Under the pieces are notes generated by a model. That model worked only from the letters and a program-made list of their open reading frames with translations, searched no databases and was not told where the DNA came from. This document shows, one piece after another, positions 3,702 through 38,666 of a stretch of 38,666 nucleotides of DNA. The translations under genes and the position numbers were made by a program. The DNA comes from a virus (lineage: Duplodnaviria > Heunggongvirae > Uroviricota > Caudoviricetes). The number at the start of each line of letters is the position of its first letter. The stretch's first letter is position 1. Where the stretch lies: IMG/VR virus record IMGVR_UViG_2609459854_000001, positions 1-38,666 of that record. The stretch is one strand, 5' to 3'.

Positions 3702-3723
3702 AAAAAAACCTGCCGAAGCAGGT
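3702..3723 (-). terminator. intrinsic terminator downstream of the repressor gene
   Basis: On the minus-strand transcript: 6-bp GC stem (ACCUGC/GCAGGU) with a UUCG tetraloop followed by a run of about 7 U, 14 nt after the repressor stop. Confidence 0.55.
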
Positions 3724-3736
3724 TCATAAACATTGA

Positions 3737-4411: not shown

Positions 4412-4426
4412 AACGAAATTAAAACC

Positions 4427-4498
4427 CTTGTACCGTTAAGGTACAAGTATCTTGAAGGTTCATTTCAATCATGTAATATGTACACCGGAGGTACATAT
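4427..4498. promoter_or_regulatory. immunity-region operators: two palindromes with TGTAC half-sites between repressor and cro
   Basis: cttgtaccgttaaggtacaag (4427-4447) and atatgtacaccggaggtacatat (4476-4498), each with perfect 8-bp inverted arms, in the 90-bp divergent intergenic region. Confidence 0.5.
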
Positions 4499-4501
4499 TG
4501 T

Positions 4502-4702
4502 ATGAAAGCGTATTGGGACTCTTTAACCAAAGAACAGCAGGGCGAGTTGGCCGGAAAAGTTGGCTCAACACCTGGCTACTTACGGCTGGTTTTCAATGGC
4601 TATAAAAAAGCCAGTTTTGTGCTGGCTAAAAAACTTGAGCAATGCACGTCAGGTGCAATTACGAAATCTGACTTAAGACCGGATATCTATCCGAAAGATT
4701 AG
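4502..4702 (+). CDS. Cro-like HTH regulator
   Basis: 66-aa ORF (MKAYWDSL...) divergent from repressor; the long track ORF 4199-4702 is antisense to the repressor, so the start is set at the ATG at 4502. Confidence 0.7.
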   Translation: MKAYWDSLTKEQQGELAGKVGSTPGYLRLVFNGYKKASFVLAKKLEQCTSGAITKSDLRPDIYPKD

Positions 4703-4733
4703 CAGAACACTTTCAATTTTTAACCACAGAACG

Positions 4734-5297
4734 ATGAGGCTAATCGTGGGTAAGCATCACTGGAAAATAGAAAAACAGCCTGAGTGGTACGTGAAAGCTG
4801 TCAGAAAAACTATCGCGGCGTTGCCGGGTGGTTACGCTGAAGCGGCTGACTGGCTCGATGTAACAGAAAACGCTTTATTCAACCGCCTTCGTGCAGATGG
4901 CGATCAGATTTTCCCGCTGGGATGGGCAATGGTTTTACAGCGTGCTGGTGGCACTCACTTCATTGCTGATGCTGTGGCGCAGTCTGCAAATGGCGTCTTT
5001 GTGTCTCTTCCTGACGTCGAGGATGTGGACAACGCCGATATCAACCAACGCCTGCTGGAGGTCATTGAACAGATCGGCAGTTATTCAAAACAGATTCGTT
5101 CAGCAATTGAAGACGGTGTAGTGGAACCGCATGAGAAGACAGCAATTAACGATGAGCTGTACCTCTCAATTTCGAAGCTGCAGGAGCATGCAGCACTGGT
5201 CTACAAAATCTTTTGCGTTTCAGAAAGTAGTGACGCCCGCGAGTGTGCAGCTCCGGGCGCCGTGGCGTGTCGTGACTGTGGAGAAACTAACGCATGA
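4734..5297 (+). CDS. early regulatory protein (CII-like), putative
   Basis: 187 aa directly downstream of cro; assignment by position and size only. Confidence 0.4.
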
Positions 5298-5632
5298 ACA
5301 GTTTAACAACACACTACCGTCGCTCGCAACTGATTGCACTTCCTGTACCGGGTGGAAAAGCGAAGGTGGAGTATTGCTATGCAGTGAATGTACCAGGTGA
5401 CAGGGAAATTGTAACCCACAGCTTTGCAGAGTGGGCTGTGGGTGATTTCAACCGGCAAAAGGAGACAGTCCTTTGCGACAAGTTAACCGCTGGTTCAAAG
5501 ATCACTACGGAGTGCCCGTCAGAGTCATTCGTTGGGAGCCGGAAACACAACGGGTTATCTACCTCCGTGAAGGCTATGAGCATGAGTGCTTCAGCCCGCT
5601 CGAACAGTTTCGTCGTAAATTCAGGGAAATAG
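5294..5632 (+). CDS. hypothetical early protein
   Basis: 112-aa ORF whose start overlaps the previous stop; no recognisable domain. Confidence 0.35.
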
Positions 5633-5641
5633 AGGTCGGTC

Positions 5642-6583
5642 ATGAGCACTAAATTAACCGGCTATGTATGGGATGGTTGCGCAGCATCAGGCATGAAGTT
5701 ATCCAGCGTGGCAATTATGGCCCGCCTGGCTGATTTCAGTAATGACGAAGGTGTGTGCTGGCCATCAATTGAAACCATTGCCCGTCAGATTGGCGCGGGG
5801 ATGAGTACAGTCAGGACGGCTATCGCACGGCTGGAAGCAGAAGGCTGGTTAACGCGTAAGGCGCGTCGGCAGGGTAACCGCAATGCGTCGAATGTTTATC
5901 AGCTTAACGTTGCGAAGCTTCAGGCAGCGGCATTTTCTCAACTGTCAGATTCTGACCCGTCAAAATCTGACGCATCAAAATCTGACCCGTCAAAATTTGA
6001 TGCGTCGAAATCTGGCAAAAAAGCGGGTTTTCACCCGTCAGAATCTGGCGGGGATCCGTCAGTAAAATCAAAACATGATCCGTCAGATAAAAAACCTTCT
6101 CGTCCGGACGCTTCGCAACCGGACACGCAGACGGATGAACAGGATTTTTTAACTCGCCATCCTGATGCGGTTGTATTCAGCCCTAAAAAGCGCCAGTGGG
6201 GGACGCAGGATGATTTGACCTGCGCACAGTGGCTCTGGAAAAAAATCATCACCCTGTACGAGCAGGCCGCCGAATGTGACGGCGAGGTGGTTCGTCCCAA
6301 AGAACCTAACTGGACAGCCTGGGCAAACGAAATTCGCCTGATGTGTGTGCAGGATGGTCGTACTCACAAACAAATCTGCGAGATGTACAGCCGCGTCAGC
6401 CGCGATCCGTTCTGGTGCCGTAACGTGCTCAGCCCGTCGAAGTTGCGGGAAAAATGGGATGAGCTTTCCCTGCGCTTATCGCCGTCCGTCAGCACGCACA
6501 CAGAAAAACGTGAAGACCCGTACTTCAAAGCCAGTTACGACAACGTGGACTACAGCCAGATCCCGGCAGGATTTAGGGGGTGA
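5642..6583 (+). CDS. phage replication initiation protein (O-like; N-terminal winged-helix, internal iteron array)
   Basis: 313 aa; GAGG RBS before ATG; N-terminal HTH-like region; internal 15-bp tandem repeats encode SDPSK/SDASK pentapeptides, as with lambda ori inside O. Confidence 0.65.
   Translation: MSTKLTGYVWDGCAASGMKLSSVAIMARLADFSNDEGVCWPSIETIARQIGAGMSTVRTAIARLEAEGWLTRKARRQGNRNASNVYQLNVAKLQAAAFSQLSDSDPSKSDASKSDPSKFDASKSGKKAGFHPSESGGDPSVKSKHDPSDKKPSRPDASQPDTQTDEQDFLTRHPDAVVFSPKKRQWGTQDDLTCAQWLWKKIITLYEQAAECDGEVVRPKEPNWTAWANEIRLMCVQDGRTHKQICEMYSRVSRDPFWCRNVLSPSKLREKWDELSLRLSPSVSTHTEKREDPYFKASYDNVDYSQIPAGFRG
5951..6095 (+). repeat. iteron array / putative phage origin of replication inside the initiator gene
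   Basis: Four perfect-to-near-perfect 15-bp direct repeats (tctgacccgtcaaaa and variants, 5951-6010) plus degenerate copies, followed by an A-rich stretch. Confidence 0.55.
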
Positions 6584-6585
6584 TC

Positions 6586-7074
6586 ATGAGTCTGTTAAAT
6601 GACGTTCAGAAATTCATTGAAGCCCATCCGGGCTGTACTTCCGGAGACATTGCGGATGCTTTTGCCGGTTACTCACGGCAGCGCGTTCTGCAGTCAGCAA
6701 GCAAGTTACGTCAGAGTGGGCGTGTGGCTCACCGTTGTGAAGGAGATACACGCAGACATTTCCCGCGCCTGACTGAGAGAGCGCAGGAGCCGGAACCACA
6801 ACCAGTTCGTGAAACCAGACCTGTGCGCAATTTCTATGTCGGCACTAACGACCCGCGGGTGATTTTGTGCCTGATCCGCCAGGCTGAAGAACTGGAGTCC
6901 AGGGACTTATACCGTCGTGCTGCAACGGTGTGGATGGCGGCATTCCGTGAAAGCCACTCCCAGCCAGAACGAAACAATTTTCTGGCGCGTCGTGAGCGGT
7001 GCTTACGGAAAAGCAGCAAGCGCGCTGCATCGGGTGAAGAGTGGTATCTGTCAGGGAATTACGTGGGGGCTTAA
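6586..7074 (+). CDS. hypothetical regulator-like protein (possible PerC-type)
   Basis: ATG at 6586 with AGGGGG RBS; ...LYRRAATVWMAAF... resembles PerC-type activators; weak assignment from memory. Confidence 0.35.
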   Translation: MSLLNDVQKFIEAHPGCTSGDIADAFAGYSRQRVLQSASKLRQSGRVAHRCEGDTRRHFPRLTERAQEPEPQPVRETRPVRNFYVGTNDPRVILCLIRQAEELESRDLYRRAATVWMAAFRESHSQPERNNFLARRERCLRKSSKRAASGEEWYLSGNYVGA

Positions 7075-7727
7075 TGAGTAATAAATATTGCCAGGCGCTG
7101 GTGGAACTGCGGAACAAACCAGCCCATGAACTGAAGGAAGTGGGCGATCAGTGGCGCACACCGGACAACATTTTCTGGGGAATTAACACCCTGTTTGGCC
7201 CGTTTGTTCTGGATCTGTTTACTGACGGTGATAACGCCAAATGCGCTGCGTATTACACGGCGGAAGACAACGCGCTGGCGCATGACTGGTCAGAACGTCT
7301 TGCGGAGCTTAAAGGTGCTGCCTTTGGTAATCCCCCATACAGCCGCGCCAGTCAGCATGAGGGGCAATACATCACCGGCATGCGTTACATCATGAAACAT
7401 GCCAGTGCCATGCGTGATAAGGGTGGGCGCTATGTTTTCCTGATCAAAGCTGCCACCAGCGAAGTGTGGTGGCCGGAAGATGCGGACCATATTGCTTTTA
7501 TTCGCGGGCGTATTGGTTTTGAACTGCCTGCCTGGTTTATCCCGAAGGATGAGAAGCAGGTGCCGACAGGCGCTTTCTTCGCTGGTGCTATTGCTGTTTT
7601 CGACAAGACCTGGAAGGGAGCGGCAATCAGCTACATTGGGCGCGATGAACTTGAGGCATGTGGTGAGGCGTTTCTGGCGCAGGTTCGCCTGCAGGCGGAA
7701 AAACTGGTCATGGAGATGGCGGCATGA
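7074..7727 (+). CDS. DNA N6-adenine methyltransferase (phage Dam family)
   Basis: ATG overlaps upstream stop (TAATG); motifs DLFTDGDN and NPPYS (the [DN]PPY catalytic motif of N6-MTases). Confidence 0.85.
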   Translation: MSNKYCQALVELRNKPAHELKEVGDQWRTPDNIFWGINTLFGPFVLDLFTDGDNAKCAAYYTAEDNALAHDWSERLAELKGAAFGNPPYSRASQHEGQYITGMRYIMKHASAMRDKGGRYVFLIKAATSEVWWPEDADHIAFIRGRIGFELPAWFIPKDEKQVPTGAFFAGAIAVFDKTWKGAAISYIGRDELEACGEAFLAQVRLQAEKLVMEMAA

Positions 7728-8050
7728 CGACATTAACTCAATGCCAGCAGCAGGTGCTGGATATGCTGATTTCTTACCAGAAAGAACGGGGCTTCCCGCC
7801 AACCAATCAGGAGGTGGCAACCATGCTGGGATATCGTTCGGTGAATGCAGCGGTAGAGCATCTTCGCGCACTGGAGAAAAAAGGCGTCATCACGATAAAG
7901 CGTGGCGTGGCCCGGGGGATAACGCTTCATACCGCGGTCAAGGACGACGACAGCGAGGCGGTCGGGATTATCCGCGCACTGCTTGCCGGTGAGGAAAACG
8001 CCAGGCTGCGTGCGACCCACTGGTTACATGAGAGGGGCATGAAAGTATGA
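7724..8050 (+). CDS. LexA-type N-terminal DNA-binding domain protein
   Basis: 108 aa; ...QQVLDMLISYQKERGFPPTNQEVATMLGYRSVNAAVEHLRALEKKGVI... resembles the LexA winged-helix domain without the peptidase domain. Confidence 0.55.
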   Translation: MTTLTQCQQQVLDMLISYQKERGFPPTNQEVATMLGYRSVNAAVEHLRALEKKGVITIKRGVARGITLHTAVKDDDSEAVGIIRALLAGEENARLRATHWLHERGMKV

Positions 8051-8436
8051 AGCTGATTCTGCCTTTTCCGCCCAGCGTGAACACGTACTGGCGACACCCC
8101 AACAAAGGGGCGTTTGCAGGTAAGAGCCTGATAAGCGCGGCGGGGCGCAAATTCCAGAGCGCGGCGTGTGCAGCAATAGTTGAGCAGTTACGTCGTCTGC
8201 CAAAACCAACGTCGGCACCTGCTTCAGTGGAGATCGTGTTGTTTCCGCCGGATAACCGGATCCGCGATCTAGACAACTATAACAAGGCGCTGTTTGACGC
8301 CCTGACCCACGCGGATGTGTGGGAAGACGACAGTCAGGTGAAAAGAATGCTGGTGGAGTGGGGACCGGTTATCCCGGAAGGGAAGGTCGAGATCACTATC
8401 AGTAAGTACGAGAAACCGGCGGGTGCAGCCGCCTGA
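8047..8436 (+). CDS. rusA: RusA-family Holliday junction resolvase
   Basis: 129 aa; MKLILPFPPSVNTYWR... and ...DLDNYNKALFDAL... are hallmark RusA motifs. Confidence 0.9.
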   Translation: MKLILPFPPSVNTYWRHPNKGAFAGKSLISAAGRKFQSAACAAIVEQLRRLPKPTSAPASVEIVLFPPDNRIRDLDNYNKALFDALTHADVWEDDSQVKRMLVEWGPVIPEGKVEITISKYEKPAGAAA

Positions 8437-8455
8437 TTAAGAGGAGAAACGAAGT

Positions 8456-9253
8456 ATGAATAATCTGATGGTCATTGATGGTATTGAAGTTCGTCGTGAT
8501 GCTTATGGTCGTTACAGCCTGAACGATCTGCACAGGGCTGCTGGTTCTCTGGATAAGCATAAGCCTGCATTCTGGCTCCGCAATGAGCAAACTGAACGTT
8601 TAATAAGCGAGTTGCAGATTTGCAACTCGGCCAATATAGAGCCAGTTAACGTTATTCGTGGCGGAAATAACCAGGGGACGTATGTCTGCAAAGAACTAGT
8701 GTATGCCTATGCAATGTGGATCAGCCCGTCATTCCATCTGAAGGTGATCCGTACTTTCGATATGGTAACCAGCGCACCGGAAAAATTATCCGGGCAGGCT
8801 GCTGACAAGATGCAGGCTGGTGTGATTCTGCTGGACTTTATGCGCCGGGAATTAAACCTGTCTAACTCATCAGTGCTTGGAGCCTGTCAGAAACTTCAGG
8901 AGGCTGTTGGCTTACCGAATCTGGCACCGCGCTATGCCATTGATGCTCCTGCTGATGCACTCGATGGCTCAAGCCGTCCTACGCTGTCACTGAGTGCACT
9001 GCTGAAGCAGTATGGTATCCGCCTGACGGCTAATCAGGCATATCACCAGATGGTGAAGCTGGGGATCGTTGAACAACGCGAACGATACAGCCGTACCGCG
9101 ATTAACAACATCAAAAAATTCTGGTCGCTGACAGCGAAAGGCTGCATGTTCGGCAAGAACATCACCAGTCCCGCAAATCCGCGCGAGACGCAGCCGCATT
9201 TCTTCGAATCCCGATTCCCTGAGCTGTTAAAGCTGCTCGATACCGTTCATTGA
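8456..9253 (+). CDS. KilA-N domain protein (antirepressor-like)
   Basis: 265 aa; N-terminus ...YSLNDLHRAAG...PAFWLRNEQTERLI... resembles the KilA-N DNA-binding domain. Confidence 0.55.
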   Translation: MNNLMVIDGIEVRRDAYGRYSLNDLHRAAGSLDKHKPAFWLRNEQTERLISELQICNSANIEPVNVIRGGNNQGTYVCKELVYAYAMWISPSFHLKVIRTFDMVTSAPEKLSGQAADKMQAGVILLDFMRRELNLSNSSVLGACQKLQEAVGLPNLAPRYAIDAPADALDGSSRPTLSLSALLKQYGIRLTANQAYHQMVKLGIVEQRERYSRTAINNIKKFWSLTAKGCMFGKNITSPANPRETQPHFFESRFPELLKLLDTVH

Positions 9254-9254
9254 G

Positions 9255-10250
9255 GTGACCGTGAGAGCACTACTGACCCCTGAAATTGCCCCGCGTATGG
9301 GGATCGTATTGTTCAGGCCCGGTTCAGAGCTGATGCCCCTGTTTATGCAGGGGCGTGTCCTGCTGGAGCCTGAGCCGGAGCGTTATTCATCTTTCGCCAG
9401 TGGTGCCGTTCCCGCGGCATCACAACCGCTGGCGGATGATCCTGCCGTTCGGGCCGTGTTCCGCAATGAGGCAGTGATCCGTCGTGCTGGTGGCGTGGAA
9501 TGTCTTGAAAGCTGGTTACTTCGTGAAAAGGGCTGTCAGTGGCCTCATTCCGACTGGCACAGCGAGAACATGACCACAATGCGACACGCTCCGGGCGCAA
9601 TCCGTCTGTGTTGGCACTGCGATAACCAGCTGCGCGATCAGTTCACGGAACGGCTGGAATCAATGGCAACGGATAACTGTGCCCGCTGGGTGTTGTCTGT
9701 TGTGCGCCGTGATCTCGGTTTTGATGATAGTCACGTTGTGACAATGCCGGAACTGTGCTGGTGGCTGGTTCGTAATGACCTGGCGGATGCCTTACCGGAA
9801 AGTGCAGCCCGTAAGGCACTGAGATTACCGAAGCCTATTGTGCCGTCTGTCACCCGGGAAAGTGACCTTGTTCCTTCGGTTCCTGCCACCAGCATCATCC
9901 AGGATAAAGCGAAAAAGGTGCTGTCGCTGGAAGTGGATCCGGAGTCGCCGGAGTCTTTTATGTTACGCCCCAAACGTCGCCGTTGGGTTAATGAAAAGTA
10001 CACGCGCTGGGTTAAGACACAGCCGTGTGCATGTTGTGGAAAGCTTGCTGATGATCCCCACCACCTGATAGGCCACGGTCAGGGGGGAATGGGTACAAAA
10101 GCGCATGACCTCTTTGTGTTGCCTTTGTGCAGAAAGCATCACGACGATCTGCATGCGGATACCGTGGCATTTGAAGAAAAGTATGGCTCCCAGTTGGAGC
10201 TGATATTTCGTTTTATCGATCGTGCGCTGGCAATTGGCGTGCTGGCGTAA
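9255..10250 (+). CDS. DUF968-like phage protein with a C-terminal His/Cys-rich nuclease-like motif
   Basis: 331 aa; C-terminal ...CACCGK...HHLIGHGQGG...KAHD...CRKHHDDLH; GTG start assumed, so the start is uncertain. Confidence 0.5.
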   Translation: MTVRALLTPEIAPRMGIVLFRPGSELMPLFMQGRVLLEPEPERYSSFASGAVPAASQPLADDPAVRAVFRNEAVIRRAGGVECLESWLLREKGCQWPHSDWHSENMTTMRHAPGAIRLCWHCDNQLRDQFTERLESMATDNCARWVLSVVRRDLGFDDSHVVTMPELCWWLVRNDLADALPESAARKALRLPKPIVPSVTRESDLVPSVPATSIIQDKAKKVLSLEVDPESPESFMLRPKRRRWVNEKYTRWVKTQPCACCGKLADDPHHLIGHGQGGMGTKAHDLFVLPLCRKHHDDLHADTVAFEEKYGSQLELIFRFIDRALAIGVLA

Positions 10251-10263
10251 GTGGAGAACGAGC

Positions 10264-11016
10264 ATGAACCTTGAAGCCTTACCAAAATATTACTCCCCAA
10301 AATCTCCAAAATTGAGCGATGACGCACCGGCGACAGGCTCAGGTGGTTTAACGATTACGGATGTGATGGCTGCGCAGGGGATGGTGCAGTCGAAAGCACC
10401 GCTTGGGTTTGCCTTATTCCTGGCAAAAGTTGGTGTTCAGGATCCTCAGTTTGCGATTGAAGGTCTGCTCAATTACGCGATGGCACTGGATAACCCGACA
10501 TTGAACAAATTGAGTGAAGAAACCCGGTTACAGATCATCCCTTACCTTGTGAATTTTGCCTTTGCTGATTATTCCAGGTCTGCGGCAAGTAAGGCTCGCT
10601 GTGAGCATTGTGCTGGTACTGGATTTCATAATGTATTGCGCGAAGTGGTGAAACACTCCAGAAGCGGGGAATCTGTTATCAAGGAAGAGTGGGTGAAGGA
10701 ACTATGTCAGCATTGCCATGGTAAGGGAGAAGTCAGCACCGCGTGCAGAGGGTGTAAGGGTAAAGGTATTGTCCTGGATGAAAAAAGAACCCGGCTTCAT
10801 GGCACGCCTGTTTATAAGATTTGTGGGCGTTGCAGTGGAAACCGGTTTAGCCGTTTACCAACCACACTGGCGCGGCTTCATGTCCAGAAGCTGGTACCAG
10901 ACCTGACGGATTATCAGTGGTACAAAGGATATGCAGATGTCATTGATAAACTGGTTACAAAGTGCTGGCAGGAGGAAGCTTACGCTGAAGCACAATTGAG
11001 AAGGGTGACGAGATAA
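10264..11016 (+). CDS. late-gene antiterminator (Q-like), putative
   Basis: Last early gene before a hairpin terminator and the lysis cassette; four CxxCxGxG Zn-binding repeats; assignment rests mainly on position. Confidence 0.5.
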   Translation: MNLEALPKYYSPKSPKLSDDAPATGSGGLTITDVMAAQGMVQSKAPLGFALFLAKVGVQDPQFAIEGLLNYAMALDNPTLNKLSEETRLQIIPYLVNFAFADYSRSAASKARCEHCAGTGFHNVLREVVKHSRSGESVIKEEWVKELCQHCHGKGEVSTACRGCKGKGIVLDEKRTRLHGTPVYKICGRCSGNRFSRLPTTLARLHVQKLVPDLTDYQWYKGYADVIDKLVTKCWQEEAYAEAQLRRVTR

Positions 11017-11120
11017 GCGATTTTCGCCGAAGATAATGACATAATACTTTTATTTTTCAAAAAATATGGATAAGATTTTCTCAACGATGGGGCTTGTGTA
11101 TCTATCGTTGAAGAATTTTT

Positions 11121-11150
11121 ACGACCTCGCTATTGCGAGGTTTTTTTATG
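11121..11150 (+). terminator. intrinsic terminator downstream of Q (tR-prime-like)
   Basis: GACCTCGC-TATT-GCGAGGT hairpin followed by TTTTTTT. Confidence 0.6.
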
Positions 11151-11159
11151 GTTTTTTTC

Positions 11160-11195
11160 TATTCAATCTACATCAAAATCAATGTGTTATAATGT
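11160..11195 (+). promoter_or_regulatory. putative promoter with extended -10 (TGTTATAAT) for the moron genes
   Basis: TGnTATAAT element about 40 nt upstream of the ATG at 11231; weak -35; not verified. Confidence 0.3.
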
Positions 11196-11230
11196 TTTCT
11201 GTAAAACAACATTAAAAACAGGAGAACATT

Positions 11231-11500
11231 ATGAAACTGACCTCTATCCATCTTGAAATACTACGTCGAGTGAATGAATTGCAGCCAAAGGATTCTAGAA
11301 TTCAGGCTGCATCATTACCTCATCTCTCAGCAAAAGAGGTTAACTTTGCTATTTCAGATCTTGCTGATATAGGTTTTATCGATGTTATACGAAGCAAATC
11401 TGCCGAAGGTGGATTGATTGCTAATGAGATAACGTCAAAAGGTTTTGCTTTTTTGAGTGAGATTGGCGCTGAAAAAAATTCATCGATGAGCACTCATTGA
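11231..11500 (+). CDS. small hypothetical protein (89 aa), moron gene 1
   Basis: AT-rich ORF with AGGAGA RBS, between the Q terminator and the lysis cassette; possible small winged-helix fold, no firm motif. Confidence 0.5.
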   Translation: MKLTSIHLEILRRVNELQPKDSRIQAASLPHLSAKEVNFAISDLADIGFIDVIRSKSAEGGLIANEITSKGFAFLSEIGAEKNSSMSTH

Positions 11501-11514
11501 TTTCTGCTTCAATC

Positions 11515-11532
11515 GGCTGCCAATTGGCAGCC
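11515..11532. promoter_or_regulatory. perfect 18-bp palindrome ggctgccaattggcagcc between the two moron genes
   Basis: 7-bp arms around AATT; could be a protein-binding site or a terminator-less hairpin. Confidence 0.3.
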
Positions 11533-11697
11533 TAAACTGTAAAGTGAATTTAAAATCGCCTACAATTGATGCTTAAATTTTGTTCTGTATCATCTGCAGG
11601 TTTAGGGATATCACAGTAGCTTTCTGACAAGAAGAGTTCTTTTCTTCTACCAATGAAGTGGTTATGTTAACCTGCGCTAAATCGAGACTGGTGCGGA

Positions 11698-12504
11698 GTG
11701 GAATCGAAAGTGTCATATTTTTACAGAAGCAAGAATATTTCAGGTGTTTCTATAAATGAAGATAGCTTGATTAGCTTAAGCACGGCAATTGTCGAACGCT
11801 GCGTTAAAATGAATGAGCAAGCTCAAAAGGAAAGTAGGGAAGTTTGTGCTCAATGTGTTTTTTTTATTTTGTTCGATGGTAAGGGGTATAAAGTTGATTC
11901 TATCGGTGAGCTTGTGAAATACTTTAGACAGGCCACTAGGATTGATCAAATAATTTTTACTATTGAAACTTATCAAAGTCGACAGTCTAACAGGATGAAT
12001 GGATCTTGGATGGAGCTACGAATTGATGAGAGGAATTCAAATAGCAGCACAATGATTGTAGCATCGGAAGATAATGAGTGGGTTGACTCGTTATGGATTA
12101 CGATTCAGGATTTACTTAACAAGTGCAAAAATAAATTTAGATTTTTTAGAACAGCTTGGACTATGTTAAGTATCCAGATTTCAGGTGTGACAGTTGGCTT
12201 TTTGCTTAGCTTATGGACAGCCTCAAAACTGGCGCCAAAACTATCAATCGATGGTGCATTTGCTTTATCATTTATTTGTATCTTTATTTTGTTTTCGAAC
12301 TTATGGAGCTTTGCTATTCCATTAATAATTAAGCTTATCGACTTTTTGTTTCCTAGTGTTAAGTTTGTTATTAATGGTAAAAATTACTTTCACTGGAGTG
12401 TCCAGGCTATAATTGGAGCGATTGCCAGTGCGGTTATATTGTATTTTATTAGCTCCATGTTGCTTTTTGCATTAGAAATGTTAAATAGCATCATTAAGAA
12501 ATAG
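11698..12504 (+). CDS. hypothetical membrane protein (268 aa; soluble N-terminal domain plus about 3 C-terminal TM helices), moron gene 2
   Basis: AT-rich ORF; hydrophobic segments near residues 160-180, 195-225 and 235-260; start uncertain (track start is GTG; first in-frame ATG at 11809). Confidence 0.5.
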   Translation: MESKVSYFYRSKNISGVSINEDSLISLSTAIVERCVKMNEQAQKESREVCAQCVFFILFDGKGYKVDSIGELVKYFRQATRIDQIIFTIETYQSRQSNRMNGSWMELRIDERNSNSSTMIVASEDNEWVDSLWITIQDLLNKCKNKFRFFRTAWTMLSIQISGVTVGFLLSLWTASKLAPKLSIDGAFALSFICIFILFSNLWSFAIPLIIKLIDFLFPSVKFVINGKNYFHWSVQAIIGAIASAVILYFISSMLLFALEMLNSIIKK

Positions 12505-12537
12505 TTAATGAATTAGTTATAATTACATCAATTCTAT

Positions 12538-12561
12538 GGCTGCCAAATGGTGGCCTTTTTT
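12538..12561 (+). terminator. intrinsic terminator after the moron membrane-protein gene
   Basis: GGCTGCC-AAAT-GGTGGCC hairpin (two G-U pairs) followed by TTTTTT; its stem resembles the palindrome at 11515-11532. Confidence 0.45.
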
Positions 12562-12612
12562 ATTCCTCTCATTTCTATTTCTGAGAGGACTCACTGCAAT
12601 AAGAGGTGGCTA

Positions 12613-12999
12613 ATGTCCGATCCGATTTCCGGCACAGGGTTAGCTGGTGGAGCCCTAACGGGCGCTAGTATTTATGGACTGCTGACCGGAACTGATTACG
12701 GCGTTGTATTTGGCGCATTTGCAGGGGCTTTATTCTACATAGCAACAGCAGCAGATCTGAGTGCATCGCGCCGACTAGCATATTTTATCGTGTCATATAT
12801 TGCCGGGATCCTTTGCTCTGGGTTGGTTGGCTCCAAGCTGGCGAACTTGACCGGATACAGTGATAAACCTCTGGATGCTATTGGTGCCGTAATCGTCTCT
12901 GCTTTAGCCGTTAAAATCCTGACGTTCCTGAATAATCAGGATATCGGCTCGCTGGTGGCGCTCATAACGCGCCGGGGAGGTTCAGGTGGAGCTAAATGA
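12613..12999 (+). CDS. holin
   Basis: ATG at 12613 with AGAGGTGG RBS; small protein with two or three TM segments and a charged C-terminus, immediately upstream of the endolysin. Confidence 0.6.
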   Translation: MSDPISGTGLAGGALTGASIYGLLTGTDYGVVFGAFAGALFYIATAADLSASRRLAYFIVSYIAGILCSGLVGSKLANLTGYSDKPLDAIGAVIVSALAVKILTFLNNQDIGSLVALITRRGGSGGAK

Positions 13000-13267
13000 C
13001 CCGACAGCAACTATAAATGCGCTGTTATGTGCTTGTGTTGTTATTACTCTGATGTTTTATCGTCGTGGCGACTCCAGACATCGACCGTGGATATCTCGCT
13101 TAGCGTGGCTGCTTACGGTCATTTATAGCGCCGTACCGCTGGCGTATCTGTGCGGTATCTACCCTTATTCATCGTGGGCCACTATCGTGGCCAACATTAT
13201 TTTCCTGTCCGTGCTGGTCGCCGTCAGAGGCAATGTGGCACGTCTGGTTGACCATCTGAGGCACTAA
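12986..13267 (+). CDS. second small membrane protein of the lysis cassette (holin/antiholin-like)
   Basis: 93 aa with two or three hydrophobic helices; GTG start with GGAGG RBS; overlaps the holin stop and the endolysin start. Confidence 0.5.
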   Translation: MELNDPTATINALLCACVVITLMFYRRGDSRHRPWISRLAWLLTVIYSAVPLAYLCGIYPYSSWATIVANIIFLSVLVAVRGNVARLVDHLRH

Positions 13268-13881
13268 TGAACCAATCACAATTTCAGCAGGCGGCTGGTA
13301 TCAGCGCCGATGTTTCTGCACGCTGGTTTCCGCACATTGATGCGGCAATGAAAGAGTTTGGTATTACAGCAGTTAATGATCAGGCCATGTTCATTGCACA
13401 AGTCGGGCATGAGTCTGCAGGATTTACTTCGCTGGCAGAGAGTTTTAACTACTCGGTTGAAGGGCTGAAGAAAACCTTTGGTAAGCGTCTGACGCCGTAC
13501 CAGTGCGAAATGCTGGGGCGTGTCGATGGTAAACAGGTCGCTCACCAGCCGCAAATAGCCAATCTGGTTTACGGTGACCGCATGGGGAATAACAGCCAGG
13601 GTGACGGCTGGAAATATCGCGGTCGTGGCCTGCTTCAAATTACTGGCCGTGAGAACTACACCAAATGTGGTGCGGCGCTGAAACTTGACCTTGTCAGTAC
13701 ACCAGAATTGCTAACGCAGGAGCGACATGCGGCCCGTTCGGCGGCGTGGTACTTCACGTTACGCGGTTGCTTGATGTATTCGGGTGACGTGGAACGTGTA
13801 ACGCAGATTATTAACGGCGGACAGAATGGCATTAAAGACCGCCGTGAACGTTACGCCAAAGCAAAAGCCGCACTGGTATGA
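13267..13881 (+). CDS. endolysin, glycoside hydrolase family 19 (chitinase-like lysozyme)
   Basis: 204 aa; motifs ...AQVGHESAGF...NLVYGDRMGN...GWKYRGRGLLQITGRENY... are typical of GH19 phage endolysins. Confidence 0.85.
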   Translation: MNQSQFQQAAGISADVSARWFPHIDAAMKEFGITAVNDQAMFIAQVGHESAGFTSLAESFNYSVEGLKKTFGKRLTPYQCEMLGRVDGKQVAHQPQIANLVYGDRMGNNSQGDGWKYRGRGLLQITGRENYTKCGAALKLDLVSTPELLTQERHAARSAAWYFTLRGCLMYSGDVERVTQIINGGQNGIKDRRERYAKAKAALV

Positions 13882-13888
13882 GGTCACT

Positions 13889-14158
13889 ATGGGACTTGAA
13901 ATGATTATCGGCCTGGTTGTTGCTGTGCTGGCTGCAATTGCAGGTGCTTTTGGTCTGGGTAAATCACGCGGTACAAGTATCGCAGAAACAAAAGCGGACC
14001 AGCAACGCACTGAAGAACGTGCAGCTGCTACTGAAGCCGTTGCAGAACGTAGGGTAGAGACAACAAAAGGAGCCTGGGATGTACAGCAGACTGTTAATCA
14101 TCTACCTGATGACGATGTTGACCGTGAGTTGCGCGAAAACTTTACCCGCAAAACCTGA
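13889..14158 (+). CDS. i-spanin (Rz-like)
   Basis: ATG at 13889; N-terminal TM helix then charged/coiled region; contains an embedded +1-frame lipoprotein gene. Confidence 0.6.
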   Translation: MGLEMIIGLVVAVLAAIAGAFGLGKSRGTSIAETKADQQRTEERAAATEAVAERRVETTKGAWDVQQTVNHLPDDDVDRELRENFTRKT

Positions 14159-14297
14159 AGTAACGGACACGGCCTGTGACTGGGTAAGAATCATCTACCT
14201 CACAGGTCAGGACATTGAAGTGCTGGATAAGCTTACGAAGCGGGATATTCTGGCACATAACAAAGCAGTACAGCGCAACTGTATTAGCCAGTTATGA
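14079..14297 (+). CDS. o-spanin (Rz1-like outer-membrane lipoprotein), embedded in Rz
   Basis: 72 aa; signal peptide with lipobox ...LTVSC; lies entirely within and past the Rz frame, the classic Rz/Rz1 arrangement. Confidence 0.65.
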   Translation: MYSRLLIIYLMTMLTVSCAKTLPAKPEVTDTACDWVRIIYLTGQDIEVLDKLTKRDILAHNKAVQRNCISQL

Positions 14298-14307
14298 GGC
14301 AAACGAG

Positions 14308-14332
14308 ATTGCGGGCAATTATCGCCCGCAAT
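14308..14332. terminator. hairpin between convergent Rz1 and the reverse-strand moron gene
   Basis: attgcgggc-aattatc-gcccgcaat, 9-bp stem; no strong U-tract on either strand. Confidence 0.35.
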
Positions 14333-14339
14333 AAAGTTA

Positions 14340-14729
14340 TCAATTATCTCCTTTAAAGGAGTCGTATTCACCCCAATCAGCAAACCCAATCGGTCTTTTA
14401 GGGGTCTCTAAGCATAAGCGTTTTTTTCGGATTAGCAGGACATTTATTTGAGATACATGCTGAACAAGTTCTACAGGACTGCCATCCTCCAGAGTACCAA
14501 TGAAAGAAATTAATGATGGATTCCAGTAGCTTATGTCTGTGAAATGAAATTCAATGTTTTTACCAAAGCTAGCTAGTTGTCCTCCTACCTCATACTCTTC
14601 TTCAAGTTCACGGTGAAAATCATTTATCCAGCATATAAGGCGTCTATGAAATTCATTTGCAAGATTGTAGTCCTTTGGAACATATGGCTGTGAGTATTTG
14701 AGGAAATCATTCATGTAGTTATTTGTCAT
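14340..14729 (-). CDS. hypothetical protein (about 129 aa), reverse-oriented moron downstream of the lysis cassette
   Basis: AT-rich ORF convergent with Rz1; start set at the ATG preceded by AAGGA (track ORF extends to 14756); no signal peptide, no recognisable motif. Confidence 0.45.
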   Translation of the reverse strand: MTNNYMNDFLKYSQPYVPKDYNLANEFHRRLICWINDFHRELEEEYEVGGQLASFGKNIEFHFTDISYWNPSLISFIGTLEDGSPVELVQHVSQINVLLIRKKRLCLETPKRPIGFADWGEYDSFKGDN

Positions 14730-14827
14730 CAGGGCGTCCTTTACGAGCATAACCATTGTTACTTAACGGATTGAAACGCTATTAAATAACATGGTTTCTA
14801 TCATAATTTCTATCCGGAGTTTTCCAT

Positions 14828-33233: not shown

Positions 33234-33630
33234 TCTCAGGAGCCGTCGAAGTGTCGACGGCTTTTACTTCTTTTTTGTAGTCCATCCAGGCGGATAGTTT
33301 TTCTTTATCTGTACTGCTGATATCACCAAGCATTAATTCCACTCGCCAGTCAGCTGTGACATTATCGGCATGAGCAAGTAACTGCATTCGCTGATTTTCA
33401 GCACGTGCGACATAATCAATCGCCGGAGATTTCAGTACCGGTAAACCATTTTCATCTGACGTGATTAATTTACCCCCTTCCTGCTGTCCGGCAATTAATT
33501 CATTGTATAAGTCTGTACTTATCTCAACAATGTCAGCAGGCATGTCGCTGTTTATACCATCAAAGAAAAAACCATTAGTCGATTTTGAGAAATAAATCAT
33601 AGATATACCTATACACCGATTGCTACCCAA
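33205..33630 (-). CDS. alternative tail fibre assembly protein (inverted orientation)
   Basis: 141 aa on the opposite strand, convergent with the first Tfa; C-terminal ...ISWPELPEV. Confidence 0.65.
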   Translation of the reverse strand: MGSNRCIGISMIYFSKSTNGFFFDGINSDMPADIVEISTDLYNELIAGQQEGGKLITSDENGLPVLKSPAIDYVARAENQRMQLLAHADNVTADWRVELMLGDISSTDKEKLSAWMDYKKEVKAVDTSTAPEISWPELPEV

Positions 33631-33986
33631 AAACAGGACCTTTCATATTTGACAATTTCTCCCTGAGATATACCGCCAACAATTATATAGAACTGTGATT
33701 TGGTGATATCAGAACAGTTCGCAATGCCCATTGCAGATATACCAGCCAACGACGTTGTATGTGGCACAGCCAACAGCGCAAGTGAACGATTTGGGAATGT
33801 TACCGGGTAAGTCACCGTATAGTTTGATGCTCCACTGACAATACCCCACTGAATAATCAGACCTGAAGGGAGTTTTTGAAAACCCGTTGATGAAAGTGAA
33901 CTGGCAAACGCCGCCATATCCGGAATTTGGTTTTGCCCGTTACCTACATTCCGTTTTGCCGCTTCTCCCAAACCAACGTTTATGAA
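33609..33986 (-). CDS. alternative promoterless tail-fibre C-terminal cassette (Sv-prime-like)
   Basis: Minus-strand frame reads ...FINVGLGE... across the crossover site and continues 120 codons; would fuse to the constant fibre N-terminus after inversion. Confidence 0.55.
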   Translation of the reverse strand, partial: FINVGLGEAAKRNVGNGQNQIPDMAAFASSLSSTGFQKLPSGLIIQWGIVSGASNYTVTYPVTFPNRSLALLAVPHTTSLAGISAMGIANCSDITKSQFYIIVGGISQGEIVKYERSCFWVAIGV

Positions 33987-34042
33987 AATGCAGAAATAAC
34001 GAGAAAATGGCATCATTCCTGCTTTTGTCAGAGGGAGCTACC

Positions 34043-34234
34043 ATGCTTATTGGCTATGTTTGCGTATCAACAAATGACCAGAAAATCGATCTACAACGTA
34101 ATGCGTTTAACTGTGCAGGATGCGAGCTGATTTTTGAAGACAAGATAAGCGGTACAAAGTCCGAGAGCCTAGGGCTGACAGTGCTGTTCTTGATGCAAAT
34201 TAAAGGATTTAATAGTGAGTTGCGGCCTTACTAA
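34043..34234 (+). pseudogene. truncated Gin/Hin/Pin-family serine DNA invertase (N-terminal ~50 codons only)
   Basis: MLIGYVCVSTNDQKIDLQRNAFNCAGCELIFEDKISGTK... matches the invertase N-terminus including the catalytic Ser, then diverges and stops; the rest is replaced by the 3' end of the convergent DUF262/DUF1524 gene. Confidence 0.7.
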
Positions 34235-34267
34235 TGTAAGGCCGCTATAATCATTTTATTAATTGCA

Positions 34268-36157
34268 TTAATCGTATTTTGGCCATACTTTCAATGCAAT
34301 TTCCCCCAACTTTTTACCTCGCTCCAGTATTTCACTCTCATCCCATTTATCCTTAAGTATAAGTGGTATGTTCAGTCGTAGATTGGTGTGGACGATGAGA
34401 GCATCACGTTTTTTCAGAAATACAGCATTCTGAACGGAACGGTTTACGCTAAGGTTAAGCAAAGTTAGATTTCCCAACGTAGCTATCGCTTGTTGCCGTT
34501 TCCTTACCAGTAGCTGTTCAGGGGTAAGATCGGTTCCAGACAGAACAATTTGGTTCATTACCGTAGCATCTGAATTTGTCACCATATGACCATTTTCGAG
34601 AGGCCAACAGGAATACCAACTTTGAGGCATAAGATGATCGATATCGAGATTAGAAAGATTTGGAACATCAGGCTTTTCTGTCTTCACTTGGCGACAAAGT
34701 TCTCTTTCAAGTTCCGTTAACATTGAGCGCATTTTCGGTGCGTCGAGCCTGCCAGGATAAAGTGGAGCATTGATGCAAGCGTTGAGAAATTCTGAGTCCC
34801 CAGGCCAACGTGAGGCTTCGCCATTTAAGCTATTGAGGATATTACGTAACTCAACACTGGAAATTTCCGTTTTAGACAAGTGTCGCAATACATTCATAAA
34901 TACATTGTTGTAATTCTTTGGCGTCAGGCCACATACGGATCTTCGTACTACGTAGGAGACAAGATCATTATACATGGCTGCTTTCTCATCATCGGCGATG
35001 TTAGCTATCGAAATGAACAAAGCAAGCGGATAGAGTGTCGTCACATCATAGGCTGCGATGCGATGTCTAAAGTGTGAGATGGGGGTTGTGCCAAAACCAC
35101 CAACCAATTCTTTATATTGTGATGCATATTGTTTGAGGCGCTTTACTTGCAGATCTGCTCGTTGTGAAGGCAAGTCCTTACTTACATAATCACGATACTC
35201 ATTGTAAAGGCGAGACAGATCAATTTCACGCTGCCTTTCTGATTGCAATGTCGCATGTACAAGCCACTCCATGCGTGGTTTATTAATACGTCCACGGCGT
35301 TGCTTTTCCGACCAGTATTTATCTTCAAAGATCTTCCACTCATTTTCATATAATTCAATAGCATTAATATTTTCATGCTCAGCGCACATAAAGATATAGT
35401 TGCGAATAAGATCCGTTGCATGAAGTTCCGCTCCTCGCCCATTTAATGTTTCAAAAATTATTTGGGCATCATCTTCAGCTTCGAGAAATATGCTTACCAG
35501 TTTCAGATCCGTCAAGACAGCCTCAATTAGTGCTACAGCATTTTCTTGTGGTGAGTGTTTTTCTATTTTAATCCATTTTATAAAGGCTTCAGTAAAAAAC
35601 CATAATGCCTCTAGTGACGGCGGGTGGTTGAAATGTTTACGTAACGTACCATGTTGCGTGAAGCTATCAGAAAATACATTACGGAGATCGTCAATATTAT
35701 CAACATTAAGACTTTGAATAAAATGAGTTTGATCTCGAAAAGTTGGCCACAGTTTGAAGCATTCTACCTTTTTATTTCTCATCGTTGCTTCGTTTGTATT
35801 TTTCAAGCAAGTCAATACTAACCCTTCCAGTTCAGAAAGGCCTGTAGCACGCAATGATAATCGAATGGATGCCAGAATATATTGAAGAGTGGTTAAACGT
35901 TGCTGGCCGTCAATAATATGTATGGTATCTACACCTAACAAGCTGTTTTTGAGTTGAGGTTCCAGCACCACCGCGCCGAGGAAATGAGGGGTTGGTTTTG
36001 TTCCCGAAAGTCGGCTCTGTGCTTTTTCGAAGATATCCTCCAACAAAGCTGACCATTGGTTTCGTTGCGTCCATACGTAGGCACGTTGATAGAATGGAAC
36101 ACGATATTGTCGTTGATTTTGGAAAATTTGCTGGATGGTTAGCGTTTCGGATTTCAT
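34268..36157 (-). CDS. DUF262/DUF1524 (GmrSD-like) type IV restriction endonuclease
   Basis: 629 aa; N-terminal ...FYQRAYVWT...IIDGQQRLTTL... (DUF262 DGQQR motif) and C-terminal ...DIDHLMPQSW...GNLTLLNLSVNRS... (DUF1524 His-Me finger); AT-rich; AGGTAA RBS. Confidence 0.8.
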   Translation of the reverse strand: MKSETLTIQQIFQNQRQYRVPFYQRAYVWTQRNQWSALLEDIFEKAQSRLSGTKPTPHFLGAVVLEPQLKNSLLGVDTIHIIDGQQRLTTLQYILASIRLSLRATGLSELEGLVLTCLKNTNEATMRNKKVECFKLWPTFRDQTHFIQSLNVDNIDDLRNVFSDSFTQHGTLRKHFNHPPSLEALWFFTEAFIKWIKIEKHSPQENAVALIEAVLTDLKLVSIFLEAEDDAQIIFETLNGRGAELHATDLIRNYIFMCAEHENINAIELYENEWKIFEDKYWSEKQRRGRINKPRMEWLVHATLQSERQREIDLSRLYNEYRDYVSKDLPSQRADLQVKRLKQYASQYKELVGGFGTTPISHFRHRIAAYDVTTLYPLALFISIANIADDEKAAMYNDLVSYVVRRSVCGLTPKNYNNVFMNVLRHLSKTEISSVELRNILNSLNGEASRWPGDSEFLNACINAPLYPGRLDAPKMRSMLTELERELCRQVKTEKPDVPNLSNLDIDHLMPQSWYSCWPLENGHMVTNSDATVMNQIVLSGTDLTPEQLLVRKRQQAIATLGNLTLLNLSVNRSVQNAVFLKKRDALIVHTNLRLNIPLILKDKWDESEILERGKKLGEIALKVWPKYD

Positions 36158-36413
36158 TGTTTACCTATAAATAACATTAAGTGACATTCCACAAGAGTAA
36201 GAAATTCATCTGAGTCAGAACAATCATTTTTATGTAGTTATGATACAGTGTATTTGTTACTGGTGAAGTAAAAATAAGAAACCCCGCTTTTGAATGCTGA
36301 CGCGCTACGGTTTCATTGGATATTTTTTGTCTCTCCTCCATCCCGTTGGTGTTCTGTTTAGACTGATAACTTGCTGTTTTAATTGATATTAGTTTCTTGC
36401 GCCGCCCAATCAT

Positions 36414-36439
36414 GGTTGGTGGGTTGGTGGGTTGGTGGG
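36414..36439 (+). repeat. G-rich tandem repeat (GGTTGGTG)x3
   Basis: ggttggtgggttggtgggttggtggg in the AT-rich region upstream of the restriction gene; four GG/GGG tracts. Confidence 0.4.
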
Positions 36440-36975
36440 AGTTAAATCCACATTGGTATGAATAACATAGAATATGAATTAGTGTTTCAGAATTGCTTCA
36501 GCCATCACTTTTTAATACGTTCAATTTGAATGTTTATTTCCGAAACAATTTTTTCAGGTTTCAGTCCCTCGTTAGATTGCACAAAATCTCTAATTTGCAT
36601 CATTCGATGTGCACAAATTTGTAATTCGCTATAAACACTTAGCTCGTCAGATTCATTTTGAGATTGTTCACCTGTTTAAAATTCTACATAAGTATGTGGC
36701 GGATTGTGATAAACACGAGAAATCGGGGTTGGCCACCATTCCTCACCGGTCACTACGTCCGCATCGAATAGTACAGTTTTGTCAATTTCCATTAATTTCT
36801 GGATAAGAACAGAAGTTTTCAAGCGAACCTCCATTTTGCCATAAAGTGGTTATCAAAACGCTACGTAAACTATACAAAATCAGCGAGTTATGGTGAAGGT
36901 AAAAAAACAAGTTTAGATGTTCGTTAAGTATAAAATTGTTTTAATTCAATTGGATATAATAATTTTCTAAATCTA

Positions 36976-37140
36976 ATGTTACGCCATATGGGTTGGACTG
37001 AAGCGGCTGACCTGATTGTTAAAGGTATGGAAGGCGCAATCAATGCGAAGACCGTAACCTATGACTTCGAGCGTCTGATGGAAGGCGCTAAACTGCTGAA
37101 ATGTTCAGAATTTGGTGATGCGATCATCAAGAACATGTAA
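36976..37140 (+). pseudogene. icdC: orphan 3' fragment of isocitrate dehydrogenase gene (icdC-like), marking the prophage right attachment site
   Basis: Encodes [54 protein letters not shown], recognisable as the Icd C-terminus, with no upstream icd body; 165 nt, the length replaced on e14 integration. Confidence 0.75.
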
Positions 37141-37162
37141 TCACTACATGTGTTTAATATTG

Positions 37163-37194
37163 CAACGGGCGTATAACACGCCCGTTGTTTTATT
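37163..37194 (+). terminator. intrinsic terminator following the icd 3' fragment
   Basis: caacgggcg-tataaca-cgcccgttg (9-bp stem) followed by TTTTATTT. Confidence 0.6.
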
Positions 37195-37242
37195 TATGTA
37201 GGTATTATTAATAGCATATCGAGCATATTTATATAAAACCCT

Positions 37243-37566
37243 TTACTTGAGCCCATATGGGCATATTTTTATAATGCAACTATTATGCAAACATTTATTT
37301 GTTATTTTGCTTTCTCCTGGAGGACACTCTTGACTGCTTTTGAGTAGACTCCATAAATCCTTGTTGAATGGTGCGATGTTATAAATAGTAATAGGATATT
37401 CTTTATCTTTAAGGATAATTCCAGATTTAACCGGTGTAAATATACTGCCAGGAGGGAGAAATATAGTAGATTGATACCAGATGATCATTTTCATATTACC
37501 CCATATGGCTGAAAAAGATATGCCGCATGAAGGTTGAATTATCGTGTCAATTACTATCCACTTCAT
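37243..37566 (-). CDS. iraM: IraM-like anti-adaptor protein (host gene)
   Basis: 107 aa, [32 protein letters not shown]...; matches my recollection of E. coli IraM, which lies just beyond icdC in K-12. Confidence 0.55.
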
Positions 37567-38022
37567 TTGTTATGTCTTATCCCACGGTATTTAATATAGT
37601 TCATTTGGATGTTCATTTCTTTATTTTGCATATGAGTATATTACCCCTTCAAAAAATAAATTAATTAAAACGATTGCTTATATAAAACAAAATTTAAAGC
37701 AAGGAATCTCAATGGATGTTAAACAAAATGAGATTTAGTGAAAACAATAAATTATTCACTTCGTTTTAGATTTGTTTAGCTATAATGTTATACATTCAAA
37801 TGACTGAACATCCTGTAATTAAAACATAGCCTTTATGCTACTTTGTGCCAATTTGCTAAACATTATGGTTGCCTTTTTATATAACGATAATAATGAATAT
37901 AAGCATGACATGAGAATAAGGTTTCAATTTTTGAGTTATATAGGAAAGGTTTAACCTGTTCCTGGCTAAAATACATATAACTGGATGATGACTAAACCAA
38001 AACACATGTGCGTTAAGTATTG

Positions 38023-38052
38023 AAACGGGCGTATGGCACACCCGTTGTTTTT
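38023..38052 (+). terminator. second, imperfect copy of the icd-terminator hairpin
   Basis: aaacgggcgtatggcacacccgttgttttt; flanking sequence also resembles that around 37150-37195. Confidence 0.35.
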
Positions 38053-38261
38053 ATAAATATATTAACCGTTATAAAATAACGTATAGAAAGTCAAGTGATC
38101 ACATTTCAAATATCAATTTGATAGTATTGGCATGGTGATTATTTATGGGTAGCAATAAAAGGACAGTATTTATCATCCATAGGGATAGTCTCTGTACTTT
38201 TATTCCCATTATGCTAATGCCTTACTGAATTATGAAGCATTTCTTAAGCATCCAACTTTAG

Positions 38262-38666
38262 CTAGATTAATGGTTTATTATTTTCTACATCTTCAATATA
38301 TAAAAGCGTATTATCAATGGCGTAGTAACTGCGTTTGTTATGATTAACATCAGTAACCCACCGGAAAACGCCCGCGCCTGCTAGTGTTGAACAGTATTCC
38401 CGAAATGTAGATTTTCCGCAAATATGAAGCAATGCGGCCTCTTTTATTTTAGCAGGGTTCTTGGTCGTACTAACTTTTAACAGGTTCCTGGTTCCTCTTA
38501 ATAACAAAACCGTGTCATCGTGAGTAATAATTCTGATGTTATCCGTAGCCAGATAATAAATGTAATGTGCAATACGGTGATGTTTTAATTCTGAATAAAA
38601 CCAGGAGAAGTTTTGCTCTTTTCTCACTTGCTCAAACATCTTTTGAAAAACAACGACCTGATCCAT
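38262..38666 (-). CDS. hypothetical host protein (YcgX-like, 134 aa)
   Basis: ORF starts with Met at the window edge; AT-rich; size and position match the K-12 gene after iraM; identity not verified. Confidence 0.4.
   Translation of the reverse strand: MDQVVVFQKMFEQVRKEQNFSWFYSELKHHRIAHYIYYLATDNIRIITHDDTVLLLRGTRNLLKVSTTKNPAKIKEAALLHICGKSTFREYCSTLAGAGVFRWVTDVNHNKRSYYAIDNTLLYIEDVENNKPLI

Follow-up and report, generated by a model that had tools for sequence, protein, structure and literature searches.

The prophage end and its repeat tract

The window, by which we mean the whole stretch of 38,666 nucleotides that was analysed, ends on its right at a prophage/chromosome junction. Close to this junction lies a displaced 3′ fragment of icd, which RefSeq labels in relatives as a pseudo 'isocitrate/isopropylmalate family dehydrogenase', and beyond the fragment come the icd terminator (37162–37188), iraM and ycgX. 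Positions 14825–37191 of the window are 97–99% identical to the EC28 prophage, an element with lambda-like early genes and a contractile tail, whose far end has the order icd-integrase-excisionase. The icd fragment here, taken together with that order at the far end of EC28, indicates that the element is integrated in icd. The left part of the window (1–14824, ~14.8 kb) gave no megablast match longer than 300 nt to the otherwise 97–99% identical EC28 prophage, which suggests a mosaic early region. The features around the tract that is the subject of this report are as follows.

34268–36157, minus strand: GmrSD-family (DUF262/DUF1524) type IV restriction gene, a prophage cargo gene (Pfam, PADLOC)
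36178–36357, minus strand: leader/promoter module of the GmrSD gene, 180 nt, which travels with the gene
36323–36413, minus strand: diverged copy of the ~100 nt downstream of the tmRNA gene, read as an arm of a fossil attachment site (blastn and alignment)
36414–36439, plus strand: octanucleotide VNTR, (GGTTGGTG)x3 + GG (Tandem Repeats Finder, chance test, polymorphism, ssrA alignment)
36437–36451, minus strand: degenerate T-arm remnant of a tmRNA-like fragment (alignment with ssrA, strain 8GC and the attP of phage LLS)
36505–36834, minus strand: small-protein pseudogene with an in-frame TAA (36676–36678) and an altered C-terminus
36976–37140, plus strand: displaced 3′ fragment of icd, the attR of the prophage (ORF translation; pseudo in RefSeq)

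Positions 36414–36439 read catGGTTGGTGGGTTGGTGGGTTGGTGGGagtt, that is, three perfect GGTTGGTG units followed by GG, and the minus-strand reading is (CCACCAAC)n. The G-rich repeat of three GGTTGGTG units that the original prediction had placed here is borne out by the sequence itself and by Tandem Repeats Finder (period 8, 3.2 copies, 100% matches, consensus GGTTGGTG, score 52), the copies being arranged head to tail as in a VNTR. When up to two mismatches are allowed, a two-unit pattern has two overlapping matches in the window, both of them at the tract; 0.03 are expected from shuffled sequences, and none of 100 shuffles reached two. The description of the tract as G-rich sequence in AT-rich surroundings is likewise accurate, its GC content being 65% within an intergenic stretch (36158–36975) of 35% and a window of 49%.

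The tract is non-coding and lies 257–282 nt before the ATG (36157) of the minus-strand restriction gene. In the genomes with the locus no annotated CDS covers the array, RefSeq being blank between the GmrSD gene and the icd fragment, and a promoter scan found no promoter-like site overlapping it. Two ORFs that touch the array were considered for a coding or frameshift role and rejected: one of 17 codons on the plus strand, identified by visual inspection of the sequence, and one of 78 aa on the minus strand, which starts just past the array (36413), has a sub-threshold Pfam match only and overlaps the homologue of the ssrA flank, where its frame is not kept. Nor did the proposal that the tract might be a structural element find support. 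Folds of 36390–36465 on both strands were no better than those of shuffled sequences (z = 0.30 and 0.14), so that no hairpin or other structured DNA is favoured, and an Rfam scan of 33500–38666 with E up to 1 gave no match at the array and only weak sub-threshold ones elsewhere. At 37145–37215 (+) there is a weak match to Rfam tpke11 (26.4 bits against a gathering score of 43, E = 0.016), which overlaps the icd terminator hairpin and is probably due to chance or driven by the terminator.

The restriction gene said to lie downstream of the tract is real, and the tract is upstream of it in the minus-strand sense. The ORF 34268–36157 matches Pfam GmrSD_N (1.4e-33) and GmrSD_C (3.8e-19) as well as, over its full length, PADLOC mREase_IV (1516 bits), and relatives carry it in RefSeq under the name 'DUF262 domain-containing protein'. 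The only promoter-like site upstream of the gene has its −35 at 36267 and its −10 ending at 36240; it matches 9 of 12 positions, which is weak evidence, and is ~150 nt from the array.

Two further elements of the window may be mentioned here. At 34007–34234 (+) there is a truncated Pin/Fin-type serine recombinase (invertase), a pseudo 'recombinase family protein' in RefSeq, whose neighbours are tail-fibre and tail-fibre-assembly genes in opposed orientation; the inversion switch of the tail fibres is presumably frozen. Another tandem repeat, with a period of 15/30 bp (TCTGACCCGTCAAAA, 4.3 copies), is found at 5951–6014 inside the ORF 5642–6583 (+), a replication-initiator O-like gene (PHROG 391, 4e-135), and is probably a set of origin iterons lying within the initiator gene, as in lambda.

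Copy-number variation among E. coli genomes

The locus was sampled with a 261-nt query, whose match lengths report the number of units; of 5,426 complete E. coli genomes, 55 (~1%) have it. The match lengths were 253, 261, 269, 277, 285, 293 and 325, that is, steps of 8; a lone 259-nt match is a three-unit allele with a 2-nt deletion in the flank. In 13 loci, with every copy-number class represented, the arrays were read directly. The alleles are distributed over the 55 genomes as follows.

2 units: 14 genomes
3 units: 14 genomes
4 units: 7 genomes
5 units: 4 genomes
6 units: 13 genomes
7 units: 1 genome
11 units: 2 genomes

Alleles of the tract differ by whole units within conserved flanks, which is the behaviour of a VNTR. 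The window and the locus L011 have identical flanks (2,150 nt on the left and 560 nt on the right, ~2.7 kb) yet carry 3 and 4 units, respectively. The loci L014 and L016, also identical in 2,150 nt of left and 560 nt of right flank, have 5 and 6 units, and three others (L002, L012 and L017) have common flanks around 2, 4 and 6 units, the left flank of L012 having been compared over 600 nt. Because copy number differs at loci whose ~2.7 kb of flanking sequence are identical, the tract must be prone to slippage. This had been one of the suggestions of the original prediction, which proposed to compare copy number between isolates; the comparison finds 2 to 11 units among the 55 genomes, in whole 8-bp steps, with different numbers between identical-flank loci. 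In five genome pairs judged near-identical by record length and strain name, on the other hand, copy number is equal within each pair. The likeness of clone mates, together with the differing arrays between identical flanks, indicates mutation that is faster than point substitution without being extreme. Judged by these alignments, the tract mutates much faster than point substitution.

The composition of the arrays varies as well. A variant unit, GGTTGATG, occurs in the 11-unit allele and another, GGTGGGTG, in some three-unit alleles, and in strain H22 the variant GGTTAGTG makes up five of the seven units, i.e. it has itself been amplified, which shows that turnover proceeds unit by unit. Five IMG/VR contigs with matching flanks carry 4, 4, 4, 7 and at least 10 units. 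When the array and its left flank were searched for together in species-representative genomes, there were no matches. The bare (GGTTGGTG)x3 is found in more than 120 unrelated genomes, e.g. of Streptomyces, Bacteroidota and Paenibacillus, and in none of those is it surrounded by the E. coli flanks; being scattered among unrelated genomes with other flanks, it is a recurrent simple sequence rather than a conserved element. A literature search for the repeat string GGTTGGTGGGTTGGTG found no paper containing it, and one for icd, e14 and phage 21 together gave no match.

Descent from a tmRNA-type attachment site

How could such a tract have arisen? Strain 8GC carries, at the position of the array, the sequence GATTGGTGGAGCTGGCGGGAGTTGAACCCAC, whose reverse complement is GTGGGTTCAACTCCCGCCAGCTCCACCA. 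When a 51-nt query across this site of 8GC was compared with E. coli genomes, 34 of 34 nt were identical to the annotated 3′ end of ssrA, and a 129-nt stretch of 8GC matches, at 95–100% identity, the 3′ end of ssrA and the DNA beyond it in ~3,700 genomes. In the window, positions 36323–36431 align with the native ssrA end at 75.5% identity over 110 nt (blastn, E = 3e-15), and the T-arm remnant at 36437–36451 reads GTGGATTTAACTCCC, its ssrA counterpart being GCGGGTTCAACTCCC. The locus is thus homologous in sequence to the tmRNA 3′ end with its T-arm, acceptor strand and CCA. The window's own tmRNA-like copy gave no Rfam tmRNA match at E up to 1, for which it is too degenerate.

The 3′ strand of the tmRNA, CCGCCAGC-TCCACCAA, is already an imperfect 8-nt direct repeat, and the two-unit allele, CCCACCAAC-CCACCAAC, differs in the alignment from the tmRNA sequence CCCGCCAGCTCCACCAAT by three substitutions and one deleted base. 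These alignments indicate that the array derives from the acceptor/T-stem 3′ strand and the CCA end of a tmRNA-like fragment, an ancestry that the original prediction had missed, and the plus strand would be G-rich because it is the complement of the ...CCACCA end of tmRNA.

In phages that use ssrA as their integration site, a copy of the tmRNA 3′ end serves as attP. The tmRNA gene is the target of many integrase families, according to a passage of PMC10121019 that cites Williams (2002, 2003). In phage LLS (PQ299149) the homologous segment is annotated as 'tmRNA pseudogene' and attP and adjoins the integrase; it is 91% identical to that of 8GC over 188 nt, and the ~100-nt downstream flank of ssrA is also present in the attP region. 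A prophage at ssrA itself is found in AR_0369, in the order ssrA, flank, type II restriction enzyme, cytosine methylase, GIY-YIG protein and tail fibres. The lambda-like icd prophage of 8GC has a cargo end that is 99.4% identical to AR_0369 over more than 1.6 kb, after which follow the last ~26 nt of tmRNA, a 113-aa ORF and the icd core. The possibility that the 8GC sequence is the joint of a chromosomal rearrangement was abandoned in view of the complete lambda-like prophage to its left.

The fragments of LLS and of the AR_0369 ssrA junction contain the same tmRNA 3′ end and downstream flank as the tract locus. Unlike an attP of the LLS type, the fragment at the tract lies off any active junction, has an identity of 75% and has had its acceptor strand turned into a tandem repeat. 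It is situated ~520 bp inside the icd-integrated prophage with neither an ssrA junction nor an integrase adjoining it, and the working integrase is ~40 kb away from the tract, beside icd. Given this position inside an icd prophage whose integrase is at the far end, the fragment is to be regarded as a fossil and not as an active site. In strain H22, the icd fragment is directly followed by a further integrase, which has an internal stop, and by an excisionase (L013, 3987–5355); this suggests tandem prophages at icd.

Between the tmRNA-like fossil and the icd attachment core, and nearest to the latter, sits the small-protein pseudogene 36505–36834. Thirteen loci were translated: the TAA stop is common to the window and to 11 of 11 other readable array-carrying loci (L015 gave no match to the start), one haplotype has a second stop, and the ORF is intact only in 8GC (113 aa, WP_224271434.1). 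RefSeq has no annotation of this ORF in the array lineage, and searches with it gave no significant Pfam match (one was sub-threshold) and no PHROG or phage tblastn match. The drift of the fossil to ~75% identity and the nonsense codon in the neighbouring ORF argue that the region is decaying rather than functional.

We propose the following history. A phage-borne copy would have comprised the last ~26 nt of the tmRNA gene and ~100 nt of its downstream flank. In what we infer as the simplest reading, the ssrA-specific attachment/integration module was then swapped for an icd-specific one, which would have left half of the old attP behind, and this half-site, now unconstrained, would have decayed to ~75% identity. 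Three substitutions and a 1-nt deletion would have converted CCGCCAGC-TCCACCAA into the perfect CCACCAAC-CCACCAAC, and slippage (or unequal exchange) would subsequently have expanded the perfect CCACCAAC repeat; the order of these events, with the point mutations preceding the expansion, is the one that we consider most plausible.

The tract is a polymorphic octanucleotide VNTR, very probably born in a fossil tmRNA-type attachment site and having no demonstrable role in gene control; judged from its context, the array is probably selectively neutral. Like the bacterial VNTR or minisatellite loci used in MLVA, it consists of perfect short head-to-tail units in non-coding DNA, with whole-unit alleles between conserved flanks and with variant units that record the history of the array. 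Unlike typical loci of this type, it resides in a prophage of only ~1% of complete E. coli genomes (55/5,426). Its practical value would be modest, as a possible strain-typing marker for E. coli with this icd prophage. As an example of the birth of a tandem repeat, the locus would show how a cryptic imperfect repeat in tmRNA, its function lost, can be perfected by a few changes and then expanded, and the fossil would testify that a mosaic prophage has switched its integration specificity from ssrA to icd.

The array, the restriction gene and the cargo slot

That a hypervariable array precedes a defence gene, when the minus strand is read, raises the question of whether the one controls the other. 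Haemophilus, Neisseria and Helicobacter offer well-known examples of restriction-modification (R-M) genes under repeat control, and defence genes are often phase-variable in other bacteria; like the R-M contingency loci of these three genera, the tract is a hypermutable short repeat near a restriction gene. As a contingency or 'rheostat' locus, the array would switch or tune expression of the GmrSD gene by its number of units, whether through promoter geometry, through the phasing of an upstream element or through read-through from the promoter of the upstream pseudogene. The 8-bp unit is neither a multiple of 3 nor a whole helical turn and would shift the helical phasing of anything bound on the two sides of the array, and the G-rich strand would be the template for any read-through from the promoter-like site of the pseudogene (36897–36869, −) towards the restriction gene.

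However, the contingency repeats of Haemophilus, Neisseria and Helicobacter are located inside an ORF or a core promoter and travel with their gene, and the tract does neither. It lies in no ORF and between no promoter hexamers, 257–282 nt before the ATG and ~150 nt past the sole promoter-like site. The GmrSD gene also occurs, together with its 180-nt leader, where there is no array: in another prophage (L004), copies of the leader with ~91% identity are found beside a DUF262 gene with neither the tmRNA-like piece nor the array. Conversely, 8GC has the same prophage-end locus, with an unexpanded tmRNA fragment in place of the array, and carries type II R-M cargo instead of GmrSD. Among the 55 genomes every unit number from 2 to 7 occurs and no phasing classes are seen. 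Single GmrSD protein alleles span several unit numbers (3, 5 and 6 for WP_001526918.1; 2, 5 and 6 for WP_000834396.1), and apparent clone mates do not differ in theirs.

Since the array is outside any ORF or core promoter and is not linked to the gene across genomes (L004, 8GC), the defining features of a contingency locus are lacking, and control of the restriction gene by unit number must be considered clearly improbable. At the level of sequence comparison, a functional link between array and restriction gene is not supported, and the array and the restriction-gene module are shown to be mutually independent. In E. coli it is rare for a defence gene to undergo phase variation driven by a repeat, and tuning of the restriction gene by the array, if true, would be an unusual case of repeat-mediated defence control in this species, but the evidence points away from it. 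A related idea, that the array has been co-opted as a variable-length spacer or as a template-strand G-quadruplex roadblock that sets transcription from the prophage end into the restriction gene, would, if true, provide heritable yet reversible differences in restriction level among E. coli lysogens; we give it a very small chance of being correct.

The G-richness of the tract invites a second reading, in which the G-rich strand folds into a functional G-quadruplex and so acts on transcription or replication at the prophage end, as a block or as a modulator. The original prediction had spoken of quadruplex potential, and in the sequence there is some: the array scores 1.64 in G4Hunter, above the usual thresholds, it contains a G2 motif, and the G-quadruplex energy model of ViennaRNA places a two-tetrad quadruplex in it. 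Its core, GGTTGG-TG-GGTTGG, is nearly the same as that of the thrombin-binding aptamer (GGTTGGTGTGGTTGG), which forms a two-tetrad G-quadruplex, and alleles with at least four units have four GGG runs. The three-unit allele of the window, however, has only three GGG runs, which would permit a two-tetrad quadruplex at most, and the motif of four GGG runs with loops of 1–7 nt is confined to longer alleles (6 and 11 units were tested). Two-tetrad quadruplexes are weak, and the aptamer is an in vitro fold to which the tract bears a likeness at the level of sequence, its G runs not being conserved among alleles. Indeed, 28 of the 55 genomes have two- or three-unit alleles that lack four GGG runs, and unit variants that break a G run are tolerated and even amplified. 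The G4 prediction that had been proposed as a check gives the high score at the array, but 25 regions of the window reach |G4Hunter| ≥1.2 and the maximum, 1.76, lies elsewhere. Moreover, the array owes its G-richness to its descent, this strand being the complement of the tmRNA CCACCA end, and no transcript is known to cross the array. A quadruplex acting at the prophage end in this way appears very improbable, and on the sequence evidence G-quadruplex formation is an unlikely function of the array.

In the third reading, the array would be a weak Chi-like array, each GTTGGTGG unit being one base off Chi (5′-GCTGGTGG-3′), and could dampen degradation by RecBCD that enters from the attR side. 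The units are oriented like the plus-strand Chi sites of the window, and the variant GTTGGTGG keeps a residual hotspot activity, 2.1 compared with 14.1 for Chi in one lambda construct (PMC5041463). This activity is small, however, and the units, reading GTTGGTGG, are not the Chi octamer. True Chi sites are already plentiful in the prophage, near-identical relatives of which (EC28) encode the RecBCD inhibitor Gam. The copy number of the array is unconstrained, and its ancestral tmRNA-like form in 8GC lacks such octamers. Chi-like function of the array is unlikely, and protection from RecBCD in this manner strikes us as highly improbable. Across the window as a whole, GCTGGTGG occurs 11 times on the plus strand and twice on the minus strand, a strong orientation bias.

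Finally, the idea that the units are direct repeats bound by a protein, whether as arm-type sites for the integrase or as iterons in the attachment region of the prophage, is scarcely credible, even though they lie within ~540 bp of the icd attachment core and inside a one-time attachment site: integrase arm sites and iterons have fixed number and spacing, whereas the array consists of contiguous units with an 8-bp period in 2–11 copies, is derived, being absent from the intact 8GC and LLS forms, and lies at too great a distance from the active icd core, from which a pseudogene separates it.

The neutral VNTR in a fossil attachment site, which we prefer to these readings, also has a bearing on the organization of the prophage end, for the fossil would mark the edge of a cargo slot in which strains carry different restriction systems. 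Between the tail-fibre/invertase genes and the fossil, the defence cargo differs by strain: in the window the slot is occupied by the GmrSD type IV gene with its leader (34268–36357), and in 8GC (L003, 182–2858) by a type II restriction enzyme, a cytosine methylase and a GIY-YIG protein. The same R-M block stands beside the real ssrA in the AR_0369 prophage (L009, 13256–17109), with 99.4% identity over ~1.6 kb. In strain S3 (L004, 1101–3710), the GmrSD gene and leader are accompanied by a more diverged copy of the ssrA flank, with no tmRNA-like end, and the whole block abuts a type ISP restriction/modification gene.
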